Source of the DNA: an uncultured Spirochaetia bacterium
GTDB lineage: Bacteria > Desulfobacterota_D > UBA1144 > Nemesobacterales > CSP1-2
Reading direction: 5' to 3'
Assembly (NCBI GenBank): GCA_964389705.1
Contig: CAYMEO010000001.1
Location: forward strand, 2,591 to 66,590
DNA: 64,000 nucleotides
Below the pieces are notes generated by a model. It saw only the letters and a list, made by a program, of their open reading frames with translations. It had not been told where the DNA came from and searched no databases. Positions 1 through 7,467 of this stretch are shown one piece after another (position 1 is the first letter of the stretch; each line of letters opens with the position of its first letter). The position numbers and the translations under genes were made by a program.

Positions 1-236
1 TTTCTATTTCCTCCTTTTCGTACTGAACAGGACTTACCTTAAAACTGTAGAGAGCTTCTATAAATTCTTGTCTCGAAAGACCAGCTATCTGTGCAGCCCT
101 CTCCTGAGAGATCTTACCAATTTCATACCACTTCACCGCAGCCGCTAATCTCAATTCTTTAGCAAAGCTTTCCGGGTCTTCTTTCACAGCGGAAAAAACA
201 TCTTCAGGAAGTTCAAAAGCTATTTGGGTTGACATA
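1..236 (-). CDS. UPF0175 family antitoxin-like protein (partial; start at 236, 3' end beyond window)
   Basis: Own translation of the minus strand from the ATG at 234-236: MSTQIAFELPEDVFSAVKEDPESFAKELRLAAAVKWYEIGKISQERAAQIAGLSRQEFIEALYSFKVSPVQYEKEEIE. This matches the UPF0175 pattern MST..ELPDDL...GKIS.GKAAELAG.SR.EF.E.L. The ORF runs off the window edge. Confidence 0.5.
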
Positions 237-249
237 ATTTATCCTCCTG

Positions 250-432
250 CTATTTCTTAATTATTGGCTTATATCCTTTTTCATCAAAATGACACTTTAA
301 AGCGTCTTTAATGTTTTCCCTGAGTTCCTCTAAAGTTTCACCTTCTGTGAATATAGAATGTCCAAGGGCTTTGGCGTTATATCCGCCCTCAGGGTCTTCC
401 TCAACCATAAAAATTATCTCTTCTACTTTCAT
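250..432 (-). CDS. HicB-like antitoxin (UPF0150/HicB_lk family) small protein
   Basis: 60 aa ORF. Contains EDPEGGYNAKALGHSIFTEGETLEELRENIKDAL, which matches the HicB-like signature (GGY..P.L.G..T.GET.EEA..NI.EAL). No hicA partner was seen. Confidence 0.55.
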   Translation of the reverse strand: MKVEEIIFMVEEDPEGGYNAKALGHSIFTEGETLEELRENIKDALKCHFDEKGYKPIIKK

Positions 433-435
433 ATC

Positions 436-612
436 TCAGACCTCCCTTGAAATCAAATTTGTTACCCTCTTCTTCCCACTCAGCAAATCATCCATCAATC
501 CCTTTTTCACCCTTTCCAGCTTCTCTTTTTTCTTCCTTAACAACTCCAGCCTCTTATCCACCGTGCTGAGAATCTCAGCGATTTTTTCTGTTCAGAAAGT
601 GGAGGGATCGGT
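436..612 (-). pseudogene. 3' fragment of a second hsdS (Type I RM specificity subunit) gene, frameshifted
   Basis: Minus-strand translation gives (PIPPLSEQKK)/frameshift/IAEILSTVDKRLELLRKKKEKLERVKKGLMDDLLSGKKRVTNLISREV*. This is near-identical in DNA and protein to the C-terminus of hsdS at 1936-2100. The T-run is 6 here (582-587) versus 7 in hsdS. A stop codon lies immediately upstream and there is no N-terminal part. Confidence 0.7.
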
Positions 613-637
613 CAATGCTTTCTCCAATTCATCAATC

Positions 638-856
638 CTATTTTTCTAGAGCGTTAAGTATTCTCTGACGAAGTCCTATTATCGTAAGTCCAACCACTTC
701 CATGGTTTGCGGTTCTACCCTGGCAATTATGCCTTCTCCAATATCCATTCCTTCAGCATTTCTCGGCTCTCCAACAGAGATATAGAGAACATCTGCTTCT
801 GCATCGTATTCCCAGTTTAAATCTTTTTGTTTTTCATTAATCTTCAGGGTTTCCAT
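638..856 (-). CDS. DUF2283 domain protein (antitoxin-like)
   Basis: 72 aa. Contains WEYDAEADVLYISVGEPRNAEG...EGIIARVEPQTMEVVGLTIIGL, matching the DUF2283 pattern Y.YD.E.DALYI.L......E.....GVI.D.D..G..VGIEIL. Confidence 0.6.
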   Translation of the reverse strand: METLKINEKQKDLNWEYDAEADVLYISVGEPRNAEGMDIGEGIIARVEPQTMEVVGLTIIGLRQRILNALEK

Positions 857-886
857 GTTGTATTGAATCTATCTGAACACTGACTA

Positions 887-956
887 TGTCATTCTGAGCG
901 CAGCGAAGAATCTATGGATTTAATGCTGAGATGCTTCACTTCGTTCAGCATGACAA
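887..956. repeat. REP/MITE-like imperfect palindrome, copy A (family GTCATYCTGAGC..GAAGRATC)
   Basis: Left arm TGTCATTCTGAGCGCAGCGAAGAATCT. Loop of about 15 nt. Right arm AGATGCTTCACTTCGTTCAGCATGACA, the inverted complement. Same family as the copies at 3249, 3347, 3744, 5776 and 5879. Confidence 0.7.
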
Positions 957-997
957 ACGGATAATCCTCACCCAGATTTGACATTCCTCCTTTATCA

Positions 998-1273
998 TCA
1001 AAGAGTCCCTAACGCTTTCTCCAATTCATCCTTTTTGAACTCAAGATGGTCGAGCCTCTGTAAATCCTGCCATGTTTCTTTCTCCTCAATCTCACCTTTT
1101 TTGTATCGCTCTTCAAACTCTTCAACCGAAGAAACTCCGTATTTTGTTCTTATCTTAAAAATTTCCGTCTTTATCTCTCTCAGTTTTCTTTCCAGGAAGA
1201 GCCGTAAACTTTCTCTTAGCATCTCTTCCTTTGAAAGATTTAGCTTCTTGGCTAATTCTTCTATTTCCTTCAT
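998..1273 (-). CDS. small charged coiled-coil protein with N-terminal ribbon-helix-helix-like segment (putative antitoxin or transcriptional regulator)
   Basis: 91 aa. The N-terminus MKEIEELAKKLNLSKEEMLRESLRLFLERKL fits an RHH (strand-helix-helix) pattern. The rest is a Glu/Lys-rich helical region. No confident family assignment. The 3' end (DELEKAL) is duplicated as a fragment at 612-640. Confidence 0.35.
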   Translation of the reverse strand: MKEIEELAKKLNLSKEEMLRESLRLFLERKLREIKTEIFKIRTKYGVSSVEEFEERYKKGEIEEKETWQDLQRLDHLEFKKDELEKALGTL

Positions 1274-1314
1274 CTCTAGTTGTGTATCTTACCCCTTGTT
1301 ATAGGTTAATTTTC

Positions 1315-1924
1315 TTAGGGATTCCGTATTACTTTCTCGCTTTTTTCAATATTGTTTGGATTTTCTTTATCTGTTTCCCATTTTATAGGGTTGTTAACAA
1401 TGTATTCCCTTATACGGTTTAAGGATTCTTCATTTCTTATAATATGTTCATAATAATTGCGTTGCCATACAGGCATACCAGGCGTTTTCCGAATTATGTT
1501 TATATGTTTTGCTGAATGCATTTTATACCAACCTACGATTTTGGGAATCAACATTTTTCGGCGGAATTGTTGTAATTGTAGGGGCAATTAGCTTCGCTGA
1601 AATGCCCCACCCGCTACCCGCATTTTCATGAATTGCCCCTACGGAATCCTTGATGATAATGATTCCGTGTATGTGATTTGGCATTATAACAAATTCGTCC
1701 AATTCTACATTTAGAAAATGTTCTGGTATTTCTAACCAGAATTTCCTCACGACTTCCCCAAATGGTGACAATCTAATTAGAGATATGTTGTCATCTATAA
1801 TTTCTCCTAATAAACACTCCTTATTCTTTGTGCATATTGTTATAAAATACGCTCCCGATTTGGAATAGTCGTAATCCCTTAACCTTAGAGAATGTCTATG
1901 ATATTTTTCTCTAAAATCATTCAT
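1315..1924 (-). pseudogene. REP-associated tyrosine transposase (RAYT / IS200-like Y1 transposase), frameshifted
   Basis: Two overlapping ORFs. 1523-1924 encodes the N-terminal part: HRHSLRLRDYDYSKSGAYFITICTKN...VELDEFVIMPNHIHGIIII, with the HUH motif HIH. 1315-1587 encodes the C-terminal part: RRKMLIPKIVGWYKMHSAKHINIIRKTPGMPVWQRNYYEHIIRNEESLNRIREYIVNNP, with the catalytic Tyr region. The frames are joined only across an insertion of about 38 nt at 1588-1625. The gene starts 12 nt after the hsdS stop. Confidence 0.75.
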
Positions 1925-1935
1925 AGTTGATCCCT

Positions 1936-3231
1936 TTATCCTACTTTCACTCTTATTCTCCCACTCAGCAAATCATCCATCAACCCCTTCTTCACCCTTT
2001 CAAGCTTCTCTTTCCTCTTCCTCAACAACTCCAACCTCTTATCCACCGTAGAAAGAATCTCAGCGATTTTTTTCTGTTCGGGAAGGGGAGGGAGGGGGAG
2101 TTTTATCTTTTCTACTTGTGAGCTATTTAAGGCAGGATACTGTCCTCCTACCATCATTTTATTACATTGTTCTATAACAGGTTTTGAGAAGAGAGTATAC
2201 AGTAAATAGAGAGGCAATATTTTTTCTTTGCAAGTTAGTACAGCAAATCCTGTTGAACATATCTGGTTATCATACTCTCTAGGAACAATCGCAAATGCTT
2301 TTAAATATGGACGAACCATAGACATAATAACATCGTTATAATGAATCAATCTTCTTGCTCTTGAAGGAGCTTCTTTTCCAACCATTGCTTTAGCATTTCT
2401 AACAATTCCCCGTCCATTTTCAACAGAGTCAATATCAATATAAAAGAATTGTTTGTCTGGAAATTCTCTTGTAGGGTCTCTTGATTCTTTATTAATATCA
2501 ACTACTTCTTTTAATTCCTTAATCTCCCACTCCTTCGGTATCCTTCCTATATCCGTATCCGTTTGTTTAAATTCTCTTCTCCCCTGTCTACCGTCTACCG
2601 TATTCCGTCTACCAGTCAATAGCTCCTGCATCAAGCCCTTCTTCAGCCTCTCGGTCTTTTCTATGGCTTCATCAACCTTCTCAATGGCTTTATCCACAGT
2701 AGAAAGAATCTCTGCAATTTTTTTCTGTTCGGGAAGTGGAGGGAGAGCAATAGTAATAGCTTCCAATGTACTCTTCCTTATGGATGGTGCCGCTGTCTGT
2801 CCAGCTAGTCGTTTAAGGTCGATTTTCTCTAAAAGATAATAAAACAAAAATTCTGGTTCTATTTCATTTTTTGAAATTAGTCCTGCAACATTGTTGTCAA
2901 AAGTTCCCCAAATTTTTAGAATCCTAAATTTATTTAGGTATGTGGACATTCCAATTTTAGGAAAAATAATTGTGTTTGGTGGACAAATTTTAACCTTCAA
3001 AGTTTCTAAGATCGTATCATCTATAAAATTCTCTGAGTAGCTTATGTATTTAGGAGCAAGATTTAGATCATTTACTTTGATAAAAGGATACTTTCCATCT
3101 TTGTTTCCCTGATACTTTATAGGAAATCCAAATCCACTTACTACTTCTGCTATTTCTCCCAACCTCACCACATCCCACTCCTTCGGTATCCTTCCTATTT
3201 CTGTTTGCTTGAATTCTTGTTGTGTCGTCAT
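1936..3231 (-). CDS. hsdS: Type I restriction-modification system specificity subunit HsdS
   Basis: 431 aa. Two target-recognition domains, each preceded by EFKQT.IGRIPKEW. Two copies of the conserved coiled-coil spacer LPPLPEQKKIAEILSTVDK..E......RLKKGLMQ/DLL. This is the classic duplicated HsdS architecture. Confidence 0.9.
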   Translation of the reverse strand: MTTQQEFKQTEIGRIPKEWDVVRLGEIAEVVSGFGFPIKYQGNKDGKYPFIKVNDLNLAPKYISYSENFIDDTILETLKVKICPPNTIIFPKIGMSTYLNKFRILKIWGTFDNNVAGLISKNEIEPEFLFYYLLEKIDLKRLAGQTAAPSIRKSTLEAITIALPPLPEQKKIAEILSTVDKAIEKVDEAIEKTERLKKGLMQELLTGRRNTVDGRQGRREFKQTDTDIGRIPKEWEIKELKEVVDINKESRDPTREFPDKQFFYIDIDSVENGRGIVRNAKAMVGKEAPSRARRLIHYNDVIMSMVRPYLKAFAIVPREYDNQICSTGFAVLTCKEKILPLYLLYTLFSKPVIEQCNKMMVGGQYPALNSSQVEKIKLPLPPLPEQKKIAEILSTVDKRLELLRKRKEKLERVKKGLMDDLLSGRIRVKVG

Positions 3232-3248
3232 CCTATTTTTGCCTCTTT

Positions 3249-3324
3249 TGTCATTCTGAACGAAGTGAAGAATCTAGGGTTCAATTTAATTTCACTAGAT
3301 CCTTCGCTGTCGCTCAGGATGACA
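3249..3324. repeat. REP/MITE-like palindrome, copy B
   Basis: TGTCATTCTGAACGAAGTGAAGAATCTAG ... CTAGATCCTTCGCTGTCGCTCAGGATGACA, about 28 bp inverted arms. Confidence 0.7.
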
Positions 3325-3346
3325 GATACTATAGACCAGTCCTAGA

Positions 3347-3404
3347 TGTCATTCTGAGCCGAAGGCGAAGAATCTGAGACCCTTCGCTAACGCTCAGGGT
3401 GACA
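3347..3404. repeat. REP/MITE-like palindrome, copy C
   Basis: TGTCATTCTGAGCCGAAGGCGAAGAATCTGAG / ACCCTTCGCTAACGCTCAGGGTGACA, inverted arms. Confidence 0.7.
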
Positions 3405-3438
3405 AAAACGACCTCTTTGTTCATTGCGTTTATCAAAA

Positions 3439-3723
3439 TCATCCTTCACTCAAATCCTTCCATTCTGGATTTATGGATTCAATCAAAGCTATCTTTTTCC
3501 TTCGCAACCATCCCTTGATTTGCTTCTCCCTTGCAATCGCGGCTTGGACATCATCAGTTTCCTCATAATATACTAGCTTTGTGATGTTGTATTTTTTAGT
3601 GAAGCCATCAATCATTTTGTTTTTATGTTCATAGACGCGTCTCATTAGGTCGTTTGTCACACCTGTATATAATGTCTTTGAACGGTTGGTCATTATGTAA
3701 ACATAATATCGGTTCATTTGCAC
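3439..3723 (-). CDS. GIY-YIG nuclease family protein (YhbQ/UPF0213-like small standalone nuclease domain)
   Basis: 94 aa. Motif YVYIMTNRSKTLYTGVTNDLMRRVYEHKN matches GIY-(10-11)-YTG..R...H.. Flanked on both sides by the REP-like palindromes. Confidence 0.85.
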   Translation of the reverse strand: MQMNRYYVYIMTNRSKTLYTGVTNDLMRRVYEHKNKMIDGFTKKYNITKLVYYEETDDVQAAIAREKQIKGWLRRKKIALIESINPEWKDLSEG

Positions 3724-3743
3724 AATTGCCTTAGTTGGCTATG

Positions 3744-3831
3744 TGTCATTCTGAGCCGAAGCGTAGCGAAGGCGAAGAATCCCGGAGTTTGAGATGCTTC
3801 GCTAGATCCTTCGCTGTTGCTCAGGATGACA
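3744..3831. repeat. REP/MITE-like palindrome, copy D
   Basis: TGTCATTCTGAGCCGAAGCGTAGCGAAGGCGAAGAATCCCGGAG / ...GATCCTTCGCTGTTGCTCAGGATGACA. Confidence 0.7.
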
Positions 3832-3852
3832 GCATTGATTAATAAAATTAAC

Positions 3853-5610
3853 TCACAAGCCGTTACTTTCCTTTAGCTCCCTAAGATACCCATCAATCCT
3901 TCTTTCAATCTCCTGAAGCTCCTCCTCCAATGCACGGATTTCCTTCCACTCTTCCTCAACATTTATCTCTTCGCTTTCTTCCTCAGGAAACACATAAAGC
4001 GTAACATTCAGGTTATAGTCATTCTCTTTTATCTTTTCCAAATCAACAGCCTTAGAAAACCCATCTGAATCTTTGAATTCCCTATAAGCCTCAACTATTT
4101 TCTCTATATTCTCATCTCCCAGTTGGTTGAGTTTCCTTACTTCAGGGTGCTGTTTGAATTCCCTACTTGCGTTTATGAATAGTATTTTCCCTCTTCTTTC
4201 CTCCGGCTTGTTTTTATTGAGGATTATCACGGCCCCAGGCGCTCCTGTGTTATAGAAGAGCTTTTCGGGAAGGAGAATGACGGATTCTATCAAATCGGAA
4301 TTTACTACCCCTGTTCTTATTACCTTTTCCTTTCCTCCCCTAAAAAGGCAACCGTTGTCTATTACAACTCCAACCCTTCCCGTCTTGTCATACGCAGAAG
4401 CCAGCATGTGCTCTATCCATGCCCAGTCTGCGGACTGCTTGGGAGGAAACCCGAACTTAAATCTCTCCTTCCAGAACTCCCCTCGCTTCAGGATTTCCTC
4501 ATCGTATCCGTCTTGATTCCACGGCGGATTGGCTATCACGATATCGAATCTCTTTATTCTTTCACCTTCTTTAAACTTGGGATAAAGCAATGTGTCTCCA
4601 AGTGTAAGCTGAGCGTTTCTTATATCATGTATGTAGAGATTCATTTTAGATAGGGCAAGTGTCTTATGATTGGCTTCTTGTCCAAAGAGAAAGAGCCTAT
4701 CCGCTTCGCCTTTTCCGTGTTCATTCTCAACATGCTGGTATGAGGTTATGAGCATACCTCCAGAGCCACACGCCGGGTCATAAACGCCTTCACCGGGCTT
4801 TGGATTGAGTATTTCAACAATGAGTTTTATAACCTCTCGCGGGGTGTATACCTCTCCCTCTTTAGCCTTCTGAGGGGCAAAATATCTCAAAATCCATTCG
4901 TAGGCATCTCCAAGGATGTCTGGGGATACATGATTAAGAGGCTTGGCGCTGAAGAGTTCAACAAGCTGCCTTAATATCTCCGCGTTTTCCCTATTTGTGG
5001 TGAATTGAACAAAGTCCACATTTTCAAATACGTCCTTGAGTTCCGGGTTTCTCTCCGCGAGGGTCTTCATCGCCTTTGAGAAGTTTTCAGGCAACCTTGC
5101 GGGCTCTTTTCTTATTTCTTTCCACAGGAATCCTTCGGGAATGTCGAAGTCATGGTAAATCGAATTCTTGGCTTCTTCTCTTGCCTCTTTGTCACTTAGC
5201 CCATCCGAAAGGGCTTCGTTATAAGCCCCTTCAAACTCCATTTCCCACTTATCGCTTATTCTCTTATAGAAGAGGAGAACGAGTATGAAGCTGTAATCAA
5301 CCCTTGTCCTTATGAGATCGGCTGCCCCTTTTAGAAGCGATTCAAGGTCGCTCCTTGTTAATTGATTTTTATCTATTGATAACCTCTCGGATATTATTTT
5401 CACTCTGTTTTCCAGCCGGTATATCCTCTTTCTAGCATCCTCGGAATCAAACTCCACTTTTAACAATTTCTGCTTTCTTAGCTCGGAGAGGAAAACATTT
5501 ATCTGATCTTCACTATCCTGCATCTTCTCTTTAAGAACCTTGGCGGCGTCTTCAAAACGGAAATCATTGTCATGGTGCTCATCCCCACAGAATCTTATAT
5601 CTCTTCTCAA
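3853..5610 (-). CDS. hsdM: Type I restriction-modification system DNA methyltransferase subunit HsdM (N6-adenine)
   Basis: 585 aa. HsdM N-terminal domain. SAM motif I is DPACGSGGML. Motif IV is NPPW (FDIVIANPPWNQ). Confidence 0.9.
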   Translation of the reverse strand: MRRDIRFCGDEHHDNDFRFEDAAKVLKEKMQDSEDQINVFLSELRKQKLLKVEFDSEDARKRIYRLENRVKIISERLSIDKNQLTRSDLESLLKGAADLIRTRVDYSFILVLLFYKRISDKWEMEFEGAYNEALSDGLSDKEAREEAKNSIYHDFDIPEGFLWKEIRKEPARLPENFSKAMKTLAERNPELKDVFENVDFVQFTTNRENAEILRQLVELFSAKPLNHVSPDILGDAYEWILRYFAPQKAKEGEVYTPREVIKLIVEILNPKPGEGVYDPACGSGGMLITSYQHVENEHGKGEADRLFLFGQEANHKTLALSKMNLYIHDIRNAQLTLGDTLLYPKFKEGERIKRFDIVIANPPWNQDGYDEEILKRGEFWKERFKFGFPPKQSADWAWIEHMLASAYDKTGRVGVVIDNGCLFRGGKEKVIRTGVVNSDLIESVILLPEKLFYNTGAPGAVIILNKNKPEERRGKILFINASREFKQHPEVRKLNQLGDENIEKIVEAYREFKDSDGFSKAVDLEKIKENDYNLNVTLYVFPEEESEEINVEEEWKEIRALEEELQEIERRIDGYLRELKESNGL

Positions 5611-5775
5611 GCCAGTTGGGTATCATAAGCTTCCTCCCTCGATTATATAAGCTTTTAAACAATTACTTATACTATAAGCAGAAAGGATAATTATCAAGAG
5701 AAGGTAGAAAAATCGCAGTCAAAAGTAGAAGAAAGGATTAGAAATGACATCTAGAGCTGATATTATAATAGGGTC

Positions 5776-5845
5776 TGTCATCCTGAGCGGTAGCGAAGGA
5801 TCTACCTCTTCTGGCTTCTTTGTCGCTTCGCTCCTCAGAATGACA
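5776..5845. repeat. REP/MITE-like palindrome, copy E
   Basis: TGTCATCCTGAGCGGTAGCGAAGGATCTACC ... TGTCGCTTCGCTCCTCAGAATGACA. Confidence 0.65.
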
Positions 5846-5878
5846 TTTATGGGTGTATTGGAGTTGCTCCCGGTATTT

Positions 5879-5990
5879 GTCACTCTGAGCACATTCATTA
5901 TTATTCAGTGTAAACTCCGCGAAGAATCTCGGAGTGCTAGACCCTTCGCGGAGTTTACACTGAATAAGGCACGCCCTGAGTGCAACCGAA
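5879..5990. repeat. REP/MITE-like element, copy F, with nested perfect 19 bp inverted repeat
   Basis: GTCACTCTGAGC...CAGTGTAAACTCCGCGAAG AATCTCGGAGTGCTAGACC CTTCGCGGAGTTTACACTG...GCCCTGAGTGCAAC. Confidence 0.65.
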
Positions 5991-6066
5991 GGGTGAATGT
6001 GTTTGGAATGATAACACTAAATGCAAAGTTTGACTCATCTTCAACTCTAATTTAACCTAAACCCGC

Positions 6067-7467
6067 ATGAGTGTGAGAACGAGATTTGCTCCAAGCCCAA
6101 CGGGGGCGCTCCATATAGGCGGGGCAAGGACTGCGATCTTTAACTGGCTTTTTGCAAGGCACTATGGCGGAAAATTTATTCTCCGAATTGAAGACACAGA
6201 TCGTGCCCGCTCTACCGAAGAATCTGTATCTGAGATATTAGATGGCATGACATGGCTCGGACTCAATTGGGATGAGGGTCCGTTCAGGCAGTCCGATAGA
6301 CTCTCTATTTACCAGGAATATGCCGAAAGGCTCCTTCAGTCTGGAAAGGCATACAGATGCTATTGCACGCCAGATGAGCTTGATAGGAGAAGGAAAGAGG
6401 CGGAAAAACAGGGAAGGATCTACAGATACGAGGGCACATGCAGAAGTCTGAAATCCAATCCCCTAGATAAGCCCTTTGCTATCCGTCTTATGACTCCTGA
6501 GGTGGGGACCATTGAGGTTGATGATTTAATTAGGGGAATTATCCATTTTGATGCCAAAGAGATTGACGATTTTGTTATTCAAAAGACAGATGGGTTTCCG
6601 ACATATAACTTTGCCGTAGTAATTGATGATGCCACTATGGATATAACCCACGTCATACGCGGGGACGACCATATTGCAAACACCCCAAAACAGATCCTCA
6701 TATATGAGGCGTTATCTCAAGGGATTCCCAAATTCGCTCATGTCTCAATGATTCTTGGCTCTGATAAGGCAAGACTAAGCAAGAGACACGGCGCTACCTC
6801 GGTCATTGCATATAGGGAGATGGGCTATCTTCCGGAGGCGGTTGTAAACTATCTTGCCCGTCTCGGCTGGTCTTATGGGGATCAAGAGATCTTTTCAAAA
6901 GAAGAGTTGATTGAGAAATTCACGCTTGAGAATGTGGGGAAATCTGCTGCCGTTTTTAATCCTGAAAAACTCTTATGGCTAAACGGTTGGTATATAAGAA
7001 ACAAACCGGCTGAGGAGATTGCGAGGCTTCTGATTCCGTTCCTACAAAAGAAGGGATTTCAGGTTGCTTTCGATGAGAGGCTTATAAAGATCGTAAGTGT
7101 ACTTCGAGAAAGGGCAAAGACACTCCTAGAGCTCGCTGACTCTGCGCAATATTTCTTCACCGATGAAATCAAGTATGAAGAGGTGGCTCGAAAGAAGTTT
7201 CTTACATCCGATGCGCTTCCGATTCTTGAAGAACTCATAAATAGGCTCTCTTCCCTTCATGATTTTACGGCCCCAGAGCTGCAAAGGATATTTGGAGAAA
7301 TTACGGAGAGGAGGGGAATAAAGCTCATTCAAATCGCCCAGCCAACAAGGGTTGCTCTTACCGGAGGAACGGTAAGCCCTGGAATCTTCGAGGTAATGGA
7401 GATTCTAGGAAAGGATAGGGTGATAGAGAGATTAAAAAGGGCAGTCTCCTATATTTCAAAAAATTAA
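6067..7467 (+). CDS. gltX: glutamyl-tRNA synthetase
   Basis: 466 aa. RFAPSPTGALHIGGARTA (HIGH motif). ...RLSKRHGA (KMSKS-like motif). Typical GltX length. Confidence 0.95.
   Translation: MSVRTRFAPSPTGALHIGGARTAIFNWLFARHYGGKFILRIEDTDRARSTEESVSEILDGMTWLGLNWDEGPFRQSDRLSIYQEYAERLLQSGKAYRCYCTPDELDRRRKEAEKQGRIYRYEGTCRSLKSNPLDKPFAIRLMTPEVGTIEVDDLIRGIIHFDAKEIDDFVIQKTDGFPTYNFAVVIDDATMDITHVIRGDDHIANTPKQILIYEALSQGIPKFAHVSMILGSDKARLSKRHGATSVIAYREMGYLPEAVVNYLARLGWSYGDQEIFSKEELIEKFTLENVGKSAAVFNPEKLLWLNGWYIRNKPAEEIARLLIPFLQKKGFQVAFDERLIKIVSVLRERAKTLLELADSAQYFFTDEIKYEEVARKKFLTSDALPILEELINRLSSLHDFTAPELQRIFGEITERRGIKLIQIAQPTRVALTGGTVSPGIFEVMEILGKDRVIERLKRAVSYISKN

Follow-up and report, generated by a model that had tools for sequence, protein, structure and literature searches.

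Positions 3,245 to 3,835 of the stretch of DNA analysed here (64,000 nucleotides (nt), referred to below as the window) very probably constitute an Ssn module (the ssn gene for a small GIY-YIG nuclease, with its cognate hairpin repeat in three inverted doublets) that a complete type I restriction-modification (R-M) operon carries as a passenger in its variable cargo slot, between hsdM and hsdS. The Ssn family consists of single-domain GIY-YIG proteins of about 94 amino acids (aa; CDD cd10448) whose genes are flanked by their own hairpin repeats, designated NTS in Neisseria (CGTCATTCCCGCGMAVGCGGGAATCYRG) and 'Ssn-related motifs' (SRM) in general (Chenal et al., 2025, Nat Commun 16:2388; PMC11893778). 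The four homologues characterised bind the folded repeat only as single-stranded DNA (ssDNA) and in a single orientation, make their cut immediately upstream of it, and are inactive on double-stranded DNA (dsDNA) and RNA (PMC11893778). This kind of nuclease and hairpin has therefore been known since 2025, and the novelty of the present case is modest, lying in a variant of the repeat and in the type I R-M context, restriction-modification going unmentioned in the published Ssn cases (PMC11893778); it also adds to the family a probable member of the candidate phylum Dadabacteria, a placement of the host that is judged from a 90%-identity cluster of its SRP54. The module is made up of the following elements.

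3,740 to 3,835: SRM doublet D, with arms at 3,740-3,785 (plus strand) and 3,801-3,835 (minus strand), lying between the hsdM stop and the ssn start (covariance model E = 8.6e-6 and 4.8e-8)
3,439 to 3,717, minus strand: ssn, encoding a 92-aa single-domain GIY-YIG nuclease (Pfam PF01541, E = 2.5e-15); an alternative GTG start at 3,723 would give 94 aa
3,343 to 3,408: SRM doublet C, with arms at 3,343-3,378 (plus strand) and 3,374-3,408 (minus strand), directly downstream of ssn (covariance model E = 3.5e-8 and 8.3e-9)
3,245 to 3,328: SRM doublet B, with arms at 3,245-3,278 (plus strand) and 3,294-3,328 (minus strand), abutting the hsdS start (covariance model E = 1.4e-9 and 8.7e-9)

An earlier note on this DNA had placed a GIY-YIG open reading frame (ORF) between hsdS and hsdM, with palindromes resembling repetitive extragenic palindromic (REP) elements in two copies (B and C) on the hsdS side and one (D) on the hsdM side, an arrangement borne out by the Pfam assignment and by covariance model matches at all three doublets. 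The likely start of ssn is the ATG at 3,717, which is preferred because all homologues begin M-x-x-YYVY there and which is used by gene callers and in all homologues; no exact match exists to the 94-aa form beginning at GTG, the 92-aa form beginning at ATG being the one on record. The Pfam GIY-YIG domain spans residues 6-77 of the protein, no second domain is present, and no NCBIfam model matches it. In its single GIY-YIG domain, its lack of any additional DNA-binding domain and its similar size the protein is like SsnA of N. meningitidis, from which it differs in that its host is an uncultured Dadabacteria-like bacterium. A tblastn search of a plasmid collection (7.3 Gb) with the window protein returned two N. 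gonorrhoeae chromosomes deposited as plasmids, with one match in each (E = 5e-20, 91% coverage). The gonococcal match is a 94-aa ORF with nine perfect matches to the published NTS around it, all inside 3.2 kb, and the window protein is 49% identical to this SsnA orthologue over 85 aa (window residues 6-89; pairwise E = 5e-30), which places it within the homology thresholds of the published study (blastp E < 1e-10, coverage of at least 75%; PMC11893778). Residues V6-Y7-I8, Y17, G19, R27, H31, E64 and N83, which are of catalytic type, do not vary among 11 aligned family members, gonococcal SsnA included.

The repeats of the window are confined to the vicinity of ssn. The core motif GTCATTCTGAGCG, with up to two mismatches allowed, is present at 11 sites in the window where 1.1 would be expected, a count reached by none of 100 shuffles. 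When a covariance model of the repeat arm was applied to the whole window without filters, nine arms were detected at E ≤ 1e-5, all within 883-5,806, together with two weak partner arms at 5,810-5,932 (E = 0.22 and 0.33), and nothing credible was found in the other 58 kb. Six arms lie within 330 bp of ssn, on both sides of it. As with SsnA and NTS, inverted doublets of a directional hairpin stand on either side of the gene and the repeats cluster round it, whereas NTS number in the hundreds genome-wide and the approximately 11 arms of the window all fall within 5 kb. Folding as ssDNA is predicted at -17 kcal/mol for doublet B (z = -5.0), -15.4 for C (z = -4.1) and -22.6 for D (z = -4.8). Single arms fold insignificantly on their own (z from -0.5 to -1.8, and +0.8 for one arm), and the hairpin is accepted because of covariation, not single-arm thermodynamics.

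Every arm of the repeat forms a hairpin, and its base changes are compensatory. The arm consensus, TGTCATTCTGAGCGAAGCGAAGAATCTC, has TGTC as its directional head and AYBCT/AGVRT as its 5-bp stem, to which are added a tandem G-A/A-G step and a GC-GNA-GC mini-hairpin; it shares with NTS a (Y)GTCAT head, an ATTC...GAAT-type stem and a GCGNAGC-type core, and departs from it as a variant with a 5-bp stem and the GA/AG step. The variable 5′ dinucleotide is complementary to its 3′ partner in 218 of 221 arms, against 83 expected if the two were independent, and six pair types are represented (TT/AA, TC/GA, CC/GG, TG/CA, TA/TA and CT/AG). The inner mini-stem covaries too, for example as GCGNAGC, ACGNAGT or GCC...GGC. 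When 82 arms from 50 species are aligned, standard pairs account for 98.8% of cells, compensatory changes are found in four of the seven pairs (66 cells), the observed covariation score is reached by none of 500 shuffles, and shifting the partner columns drops pairing to 18-45%. The pattern with which the arms were collected had fixed three of the seven pairs; the four informative pairs were free.

A search for the same unit at other loci and in other genomes, as the earlier note had suggested, located it in 80 other species. The protein family comprises at least 8000 matches, of which the 120 best each share at least 82% identity and measure about 94 aa. When one genome per species was scanned, more than 580 relatives were retrieved, and the locus counts given here (loci carry L numbers) use the best 80, each from a different species. 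These are 64-83% identical to the window protein at the amino-acid level and come from more than 10 phyla, the groups represented including Chloroflexota, Cyanobacteria, Planctomycetota, Ignavibacteria, Bacteroidota, Zixibacteria, deltaproteobacteria, Binatia and Clostridiales, placing the window Ssn in a large and very conserved subclade. The motif TGTCAYBCTGA or its complement lies no more than 400 bp from the gene in 69 of the 80 loci, and on both sides in 52; it is found 2-8.5 times per kb up to 300 bp from the gene, and 0.048 times per kb at distances above 1.2 kb. Two layouts recur, one with a full doublet on each side of the gene (the window, L018, L026 and L041) and one in which the gene sits inside a single doublet, in the order left arm, gene, right arm (L048, L053 and L070). 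The neighbouring genes are unrelated, with 163 Pfam families among 76 upstream genes and 158 among 77 downstream genes, none of them occurring more than three times. Of the 76 upstream neighbours 65 are co-oriented with ssn, as are 61 of the 77 downstream ones (L011-L090). Adjacent bacterial genes typically lie on the same strand in roughly 70-75% of cases, and the somewhat higher co-orientation around ssn may reflect dependence on read-through transcription or strand-specific insertion. Homologues from Azospirillum, Rhizobium and Sphingobium (46-54% identity) have flanking repeats that match the published SRM pattern, and a scan of 2.9 million viral contigs gave a single distant relative.

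Several individual loci show further arrangements. In L085 (5,760-6,560) and L089 (1,700-2,320) the arms are nested, with three to five left arms upstream and right arms downstream at a spacing of 49-92 bp, an array that could be explained by tandem duplication or by successive insertions into the loop of a doublet already in place. An Anaerolineales contig (L025), the sole locus among the 80 with more than one copy, contains two diverged ssn genes (1,051-1,320 and 2,246-2,515) that lie 1.2 kb apart and are 71% and 76% identical to the query. On plasmid AZO_p3 of Azospirillum lipoferum 4B (L105, 2,882-3,390), a family member with NTS-like doublets (CGTCATCCCCGCGAAGGCGGGGATCCAG) is located between sufB and sufC of an Fe-S cluster assembly operon, and in Spirosoma one lies between two glycoside-hydrolase genes. 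Operon splitting is a general habit of Ssn modules.

The identity of about 80% across phyla was considered as a possible result of recent horizontal transfer, an explanation ruled out by the saturation of synonymous divergence (dS). The dS of ssn is 0.32, and so unsaturated, in the comparison with the copy in L101 (HsdM 91% identical), and exceeds 2 against the copies in L096 and L092 (HsdM about 80% and 87% identical, respectively) and against the Dehalococcoidales copy L011, with dN/dS at 0.02-0.08. Because dS exceeds 2 at such low dN/dS, the conservation of the protein is attributed to strong purifying selection and not to recent transfer; this selection presumably stems from recognition of the conserved hairpin.

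The host operon of the module contains the following genes in the window.

3,853 to 5,610, minus strand: hsdM, type I methyltransferase subunit (Pfam N6_Mtase, E = 5.5e-115, and HsdM_N); host operon gene, outside the module
1,936 to 3,231, minus strand: hsdS, type I specificity subunit (Pfam Methylase_S, E = 4e-51, two target-recognition domains); host operon gene
1,315 to 1,924, minus strand: pseudogene of a REP-associated tyrosine transposase (RAYT; IS200-like Y1), frameshifted into ORFs of 133 aa and 90 aa (NCBIfam REP_Tyr_transpos, E = 1.5e-4 and 5.7e-11, the latter for the C-terminal half)

As transcribed from the minus strand, the order is hsdM, a 96-nt palindromic element, the GIY-YIG ORF, two palindromic elements, hsdS, the frameshifted RAYT gene and small genes of ribbon-helix-helix, DUF2283 and UPF0175 type. 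No hsdR is visible inside the 64-kb window, and the earlier note had accordingly described a type I operon lacking it; this absence is an artefact of the window edge, and the operon is complete. The source contig (ENA ERZ1669417 NODE_25, locus L001) encodes a protein with HSDR_N, SWI2_SNF2 and T1R_D3 domains that starts about 0.5 kb beyond window position 1. A sister lineage (L003), whose GIY-YIG protein is 99% identical and occupies the same site adjacent to gltX, has the gene order hsdM-GIY-hsdS-HicB-HicA-hsdR-YgjP, with a full hsdR (1003 aa) 0.5 kb past hsdS. What had appeared to be a restriction system without HsdR is thus an ordinary complete type I operon with a passenger, laid out in the window lineage as hsdM-[ssn]-hsdS-[RAYT pseudogene, toxin-antitoxin genes]-hsdR. 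From hsdM to hsdS the minus strand has neither a predicted sigma70-like promoter nor a predicted intrinsic terminator, consistent with ssn probably being co-transcribed with the operon.

Homologous type I operons were traced through HsdM. Those with HsdM 87-99% identical (L003, L100, L101, L091 and L092) all have a repeat doublet and ssn right after hsdM, so that an empty hsdM-hsdS junction, which in close relatives the earlier note would have taken as support for mobility, was not found at an HsdM identity of at least 87%. Where HsdM is 79-82% identical, the module is absent from L093 and L097, in which the hsdM-hsdS slot holds Bles03/TIR or Fic/SLFN/AbiE cargo, or lies elsewhere, after hsdS and a HepT toxin-antitoxin pair in L095 and between hsdS and hsdR in L096. 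In L092 the ssn copy (6,629-6,904; 89% identical) has a TAA at codon 13 beside intact hsdM, hsdS and hsdR, and it represents a natural knockout in which ssn is dispensable for keeping the operon. Because the module is absent, elsewhere or a pseudogene across these HsdM-related operons, the hsdM-hsdS and hsdS-hsdR spacers are regarded as general cargo slots, of which ssn is one dispensable occupant. In the window lineage ssn is old and vertically kept, given its presence in the same slot wherever HsdM is at least 87% identical, its saturated dS and its low dN/dS. The order hsdM-GIY-hsdS, whose conservation across unrelated genomes the earlier note had proposed to check, is confined to that clade apart from one further independent case among the 80 species (L067). 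Of the REP-bounded mobile cassette that had been put forward, what stands is a recurring gene-repeat unit with unrelated neighbours, variable or absent in homologous operons and of the known Ssn/SRM kind; the module may have been mobile in the past.

Some observations weigh against the assignment of the segment to a passenger Ssn module. The protein comparison used the gonococcal orthologue, recognised from the NTS around it, instead of the meningococcal reference CAX49033.1. The published SRM pattern, HGTCWYN(0-2)YYVSBRHN(0-5)WNVSBRGN(0-2)RNCYNB, which is applied in that study to genes flanked within 500 bp on both sides, has no match in the whole window, though it matches NTS, and it is found at just one of the 80 closest loci, compared with 66 for a pattern of the window-type arm. 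The covariance model was built from the collected arms since the published pattern gave no window match. As the closest loci miss that pattern, the window-type repeat is taken as a variant, and the window's Ssn subclade uses a form of the repeat that is undetectable by the published SRM search. SRM were reported near 71% of Ssn homologues, and on both sides in 42% (PMC11893778); the hairpin of this subclade, missed by the pattern, may account for part of the 29% reported without SRM. Literature searches on GIY-YIG genes together with REP or miniature inverted-repeat transposable element (MITE) repeats, COG2827 or YhbQ, and on the repeat string, produced nothing relevant, and the Ssn paper was reached by way of the GIY-YIG superfamily. 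Finally, five of the 80 loci lie in operons of R-M or DISARM type, more than random insertion predicts, and pure passenger status may be incomplete as a description.

By analogy with the characterised enzymes of Neisseria, N. elongata, N. wadsworthii and Wolbachia, the protein of the window module would act as a monomer that binds the folded arm solely in ssDNA and solely on the head-bearing strand, and would cut a few nucleotides 5′ of the arm while ignoring dsDNA and RNA. The expected outcome would be cleavage of repeat-bearing ssDNA, in the form of incoming transforming or conjugative strands or of replication intermediates, which could modulate recombination and possibly help the repeats to spread. 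Both the ssDNA cleavage and the in vivo role of the window Ssn are accordingly predicted from its relatives. Since Ssn enzymes are under development as programmable ssDNA cutters, there is some practical value in a further enzyme-repeat pair, here from a lineage that is probably thermotolerant.

Among the alternatives, the excess of restriction-type operons raises the possibility of synergy in defence, in which Ssn would have been co-selected with methyltransferase-based defence operons as an ssDNA-restriction adjunct, cutting incoming single strands (from transformation, conjugation or ssDNA phage) that are unseen by type I enzymes, while HsdMSR handles dsDNA. In the five loci concerned, ssn is always co-oriented with the restriction-type genes.

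L067, 4,299-7,746: ssn at an hsdM/hsdS junction
L026, 4,679-9,647: ssn at an hsdS/hsdR junction
L052, 3,158-7,981: ssn at an hsdR-like/hsdM junction
L015, 2,404-9,381: ssn at the junction of an SNF2/DrmD-like gene and a type IIG methyltransferase gene
L013: ssn adjoining DrmA

Plasmid p1 of P. agardhii (L099, outside the 80) repeats the L013 context in full, between an MmeI-type enzyme and the DISARM protein DrmA. HsdM in the type I cases is just 22-31% identical to that of the window, and these placements are therefore considered independent events; the module also occupies two further junctions in homologous operons (L095 and L096). Among the top PADLOC matches of 103 control genes, taken at a distance of about 4 kb, there were no restriction families, and five in 80 is far above the share of internal R-M-type junctions among intergenic junctions, put at about 0.1% by a rough estimate. 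However, the other 75 loci are in housekeeping or unrelated contexts, none of six more distant plasmid or chromid homologues has an R-M neighbour, Ssn targets DNA bearing the host's own repeat and not foreign DNA in general, and the L092 copy is a pseudogene beside an intact hsdMSR. The R-M operons of this clade are, moreover, general cargo sinks (Fic, TIR, AbiE, SLFN and toxin-antitoxin genes), such that the enrichment may merely reflect tolerance of insertion, and the background rate is itself approximate. Defence synergy is on balance an improbable explanation of the window segment. The broader proposition, that the Ssn-SRM modules of this subclade favour internal junctions of methyltransferase defence operons (type I R-M, DISARM-like and type IIG), co-oriented and co-transcribed with them, as an ssDNA-restriction arm complementing dsDNA restriction, and that they do so with a pan-phylum repeat variant missed by the published pattern, is rather unlikely. 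The apparent enrichment provides a lead on the biological role of Ssn outside Neisseria.

A free-standing homing endonuclease of the Seg or I-TevI kind, acting on a dsDNA target and spread by gene conversion, would belong to the same GIY-YIG fold family, and the genes placed exactly inside one doublet (L048, L053 and L070) as well as the nested arrays of L085 and L089 have the look of insertion at a preferred site. The protein of 92 aa ends, however, 15 residues past the GIY-YIG domain, and is thus too short to accommodate the DNA-binding domain present in all homing GIY-YIG enzymes; the 2.9 million viral contigs gave a single relative, the combination of saturated synonymous sites with strong purifying selection is unlike a recently sweeping homing gene, and the characterised relatives cut ssDNA only (PMC11893778), all of which makes this origin very doubtful.

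The anticodon nuclease PrrC, encoded in the EcoprrI type I R-M locus, is a precedent for a nuclease embedded among hsd genes, and with hsdR out of view in the window the earlier note had entertained the idea that the small GIY-YIG nuclease takes the place of HsdR as the cleavage subunit for HsdM and HsdS. PrrC acts on RNA, is kept latent by the R-M enzyme and is specific to that context, whereas the Ssn module is mostly found outside R-M operons and is dispensable within them. With hsdR present on the contig and intact in the sister lineage, the GIY-YIG gene missing, displaced or inactivated in homologous operons, the family occurring in about 150 unrelated contexts and characterised members leaving dsDNA uncut (PMC11893778), a role as substitute for HsdR is refuted.

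Equally hard to sustain is the view that the palindromes are ordinary REP/REPIN elements of the neighbouring RAYT, among which the GIY-YIG gene merely landed: a RAYT-like gene does lie 12 bp past the hsdS stop and the repeats are REPIN-like doublets of short palindromes, but this gene is a frameshifted bystander unflanked by repeats, the repeats hug ssn in 69 of the 80 loci against one with a RAYT relative (L037, a weak 30-aa match), L003 has the repeats and ssn with HicAB where RAYT would be, and the repeat head is TGTC, as in NTS and SRM, whereas RAYT REPs typically carry a GTAG head.

As an Ssn module, the segment nonetheless bears comparison with several known systems. RAYT/REPIN systems, reportedly the subject of work by Nunvar in 2010, by Bertels and Rainey in 2011 and by Ton-Hoang in 2012, similarly have a single-copy nuclease gene amid short palindromes in inverted doublets, a presumed action on ssDNA hairpins and a possible origin as a domesticated selfish element; Ssn differs in being a GIY-YIG protein and not an HUH/Y1 transposase, so that no covalent strand-transfer chemistry is expected, and in the head of its repeat. 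Like IS200/IS605 elements, the module has subterminal hairpins around a small gene, recognition that depends on ssDNA and neighbours that tend to be co-oriented; unlike them it is without a transposase fold, and no transposition, defined ends or target-site signature were identified. Stand-alone GIY-YIG domains of about 100 aa are also found in proteins of the UPF0213/YhbQ type (BH0048), which include the closest solved structure (PDB 1ZG2; E = 3.4e-4, 24 bits) and which form a different small subfamily with a weak sequence match to the window protein; we know of no repeat association for these proteins. The NTS-ssnA-NTS arrangement was itself likened by its authors to insertion-sequence architecture and to RAYT/REP systems (PMC11893778).

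Outside the module, the window contains two further sites with repeats of the same family.

883 to 959: SRM doublet A, solo and with no gene, in the cargo region between hsdS and hsdR (covariance model E = 4.9e-10 and 3e-9)
5,772 to 5,932: SRM doublet E (5,772-5,849) and a degenerate composite palindrome F (from 5,879), located between the hsdM promoter region and gltX (covariance model E = 2.3e-8, and motif matches)

Element F (5,879-6,010) is a longer composite palindrome with an SRM-like head and an extended inner stem, and is also found after hsdM in L091. A 103-aa ORF (5,744-6,055, plus strand), called on the source contig, has no Pfam match, consists almost wholly of doublets E and F, and is probably a spurious call. 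An Rfam scan of positions 1-7,000 gave chance microRNA-like matches only, on palindrome F.

The gap between hsdS and hsdR measures 4.5 kb (window 1-1,300 and L001 12,242-14,227) and contains cargo genes of the ribbon-helix-helix, DUF2283, UPF0175 and DUF3368 PIN-like families; the equivalent slots in related operons are occupied by Fic, TIR, Bles03, SLFN/AlbA, AbiE or HepT/MNT genes, and this type I operon family behaves as a hotspot for defence and toxin-antitoxin cargo. Within the same gap, 1.5 kb downstream of the intact hsdS, lies a 114-nt remnant of the hsdS 3′ region (474-587), which is 90% identical to the hsdS 3′ end (1,959-2,072) and 63% identical to its central repeat (2,610-2,723), suggesting past recombination or a cargo insertion that displaced an older hsdS end.

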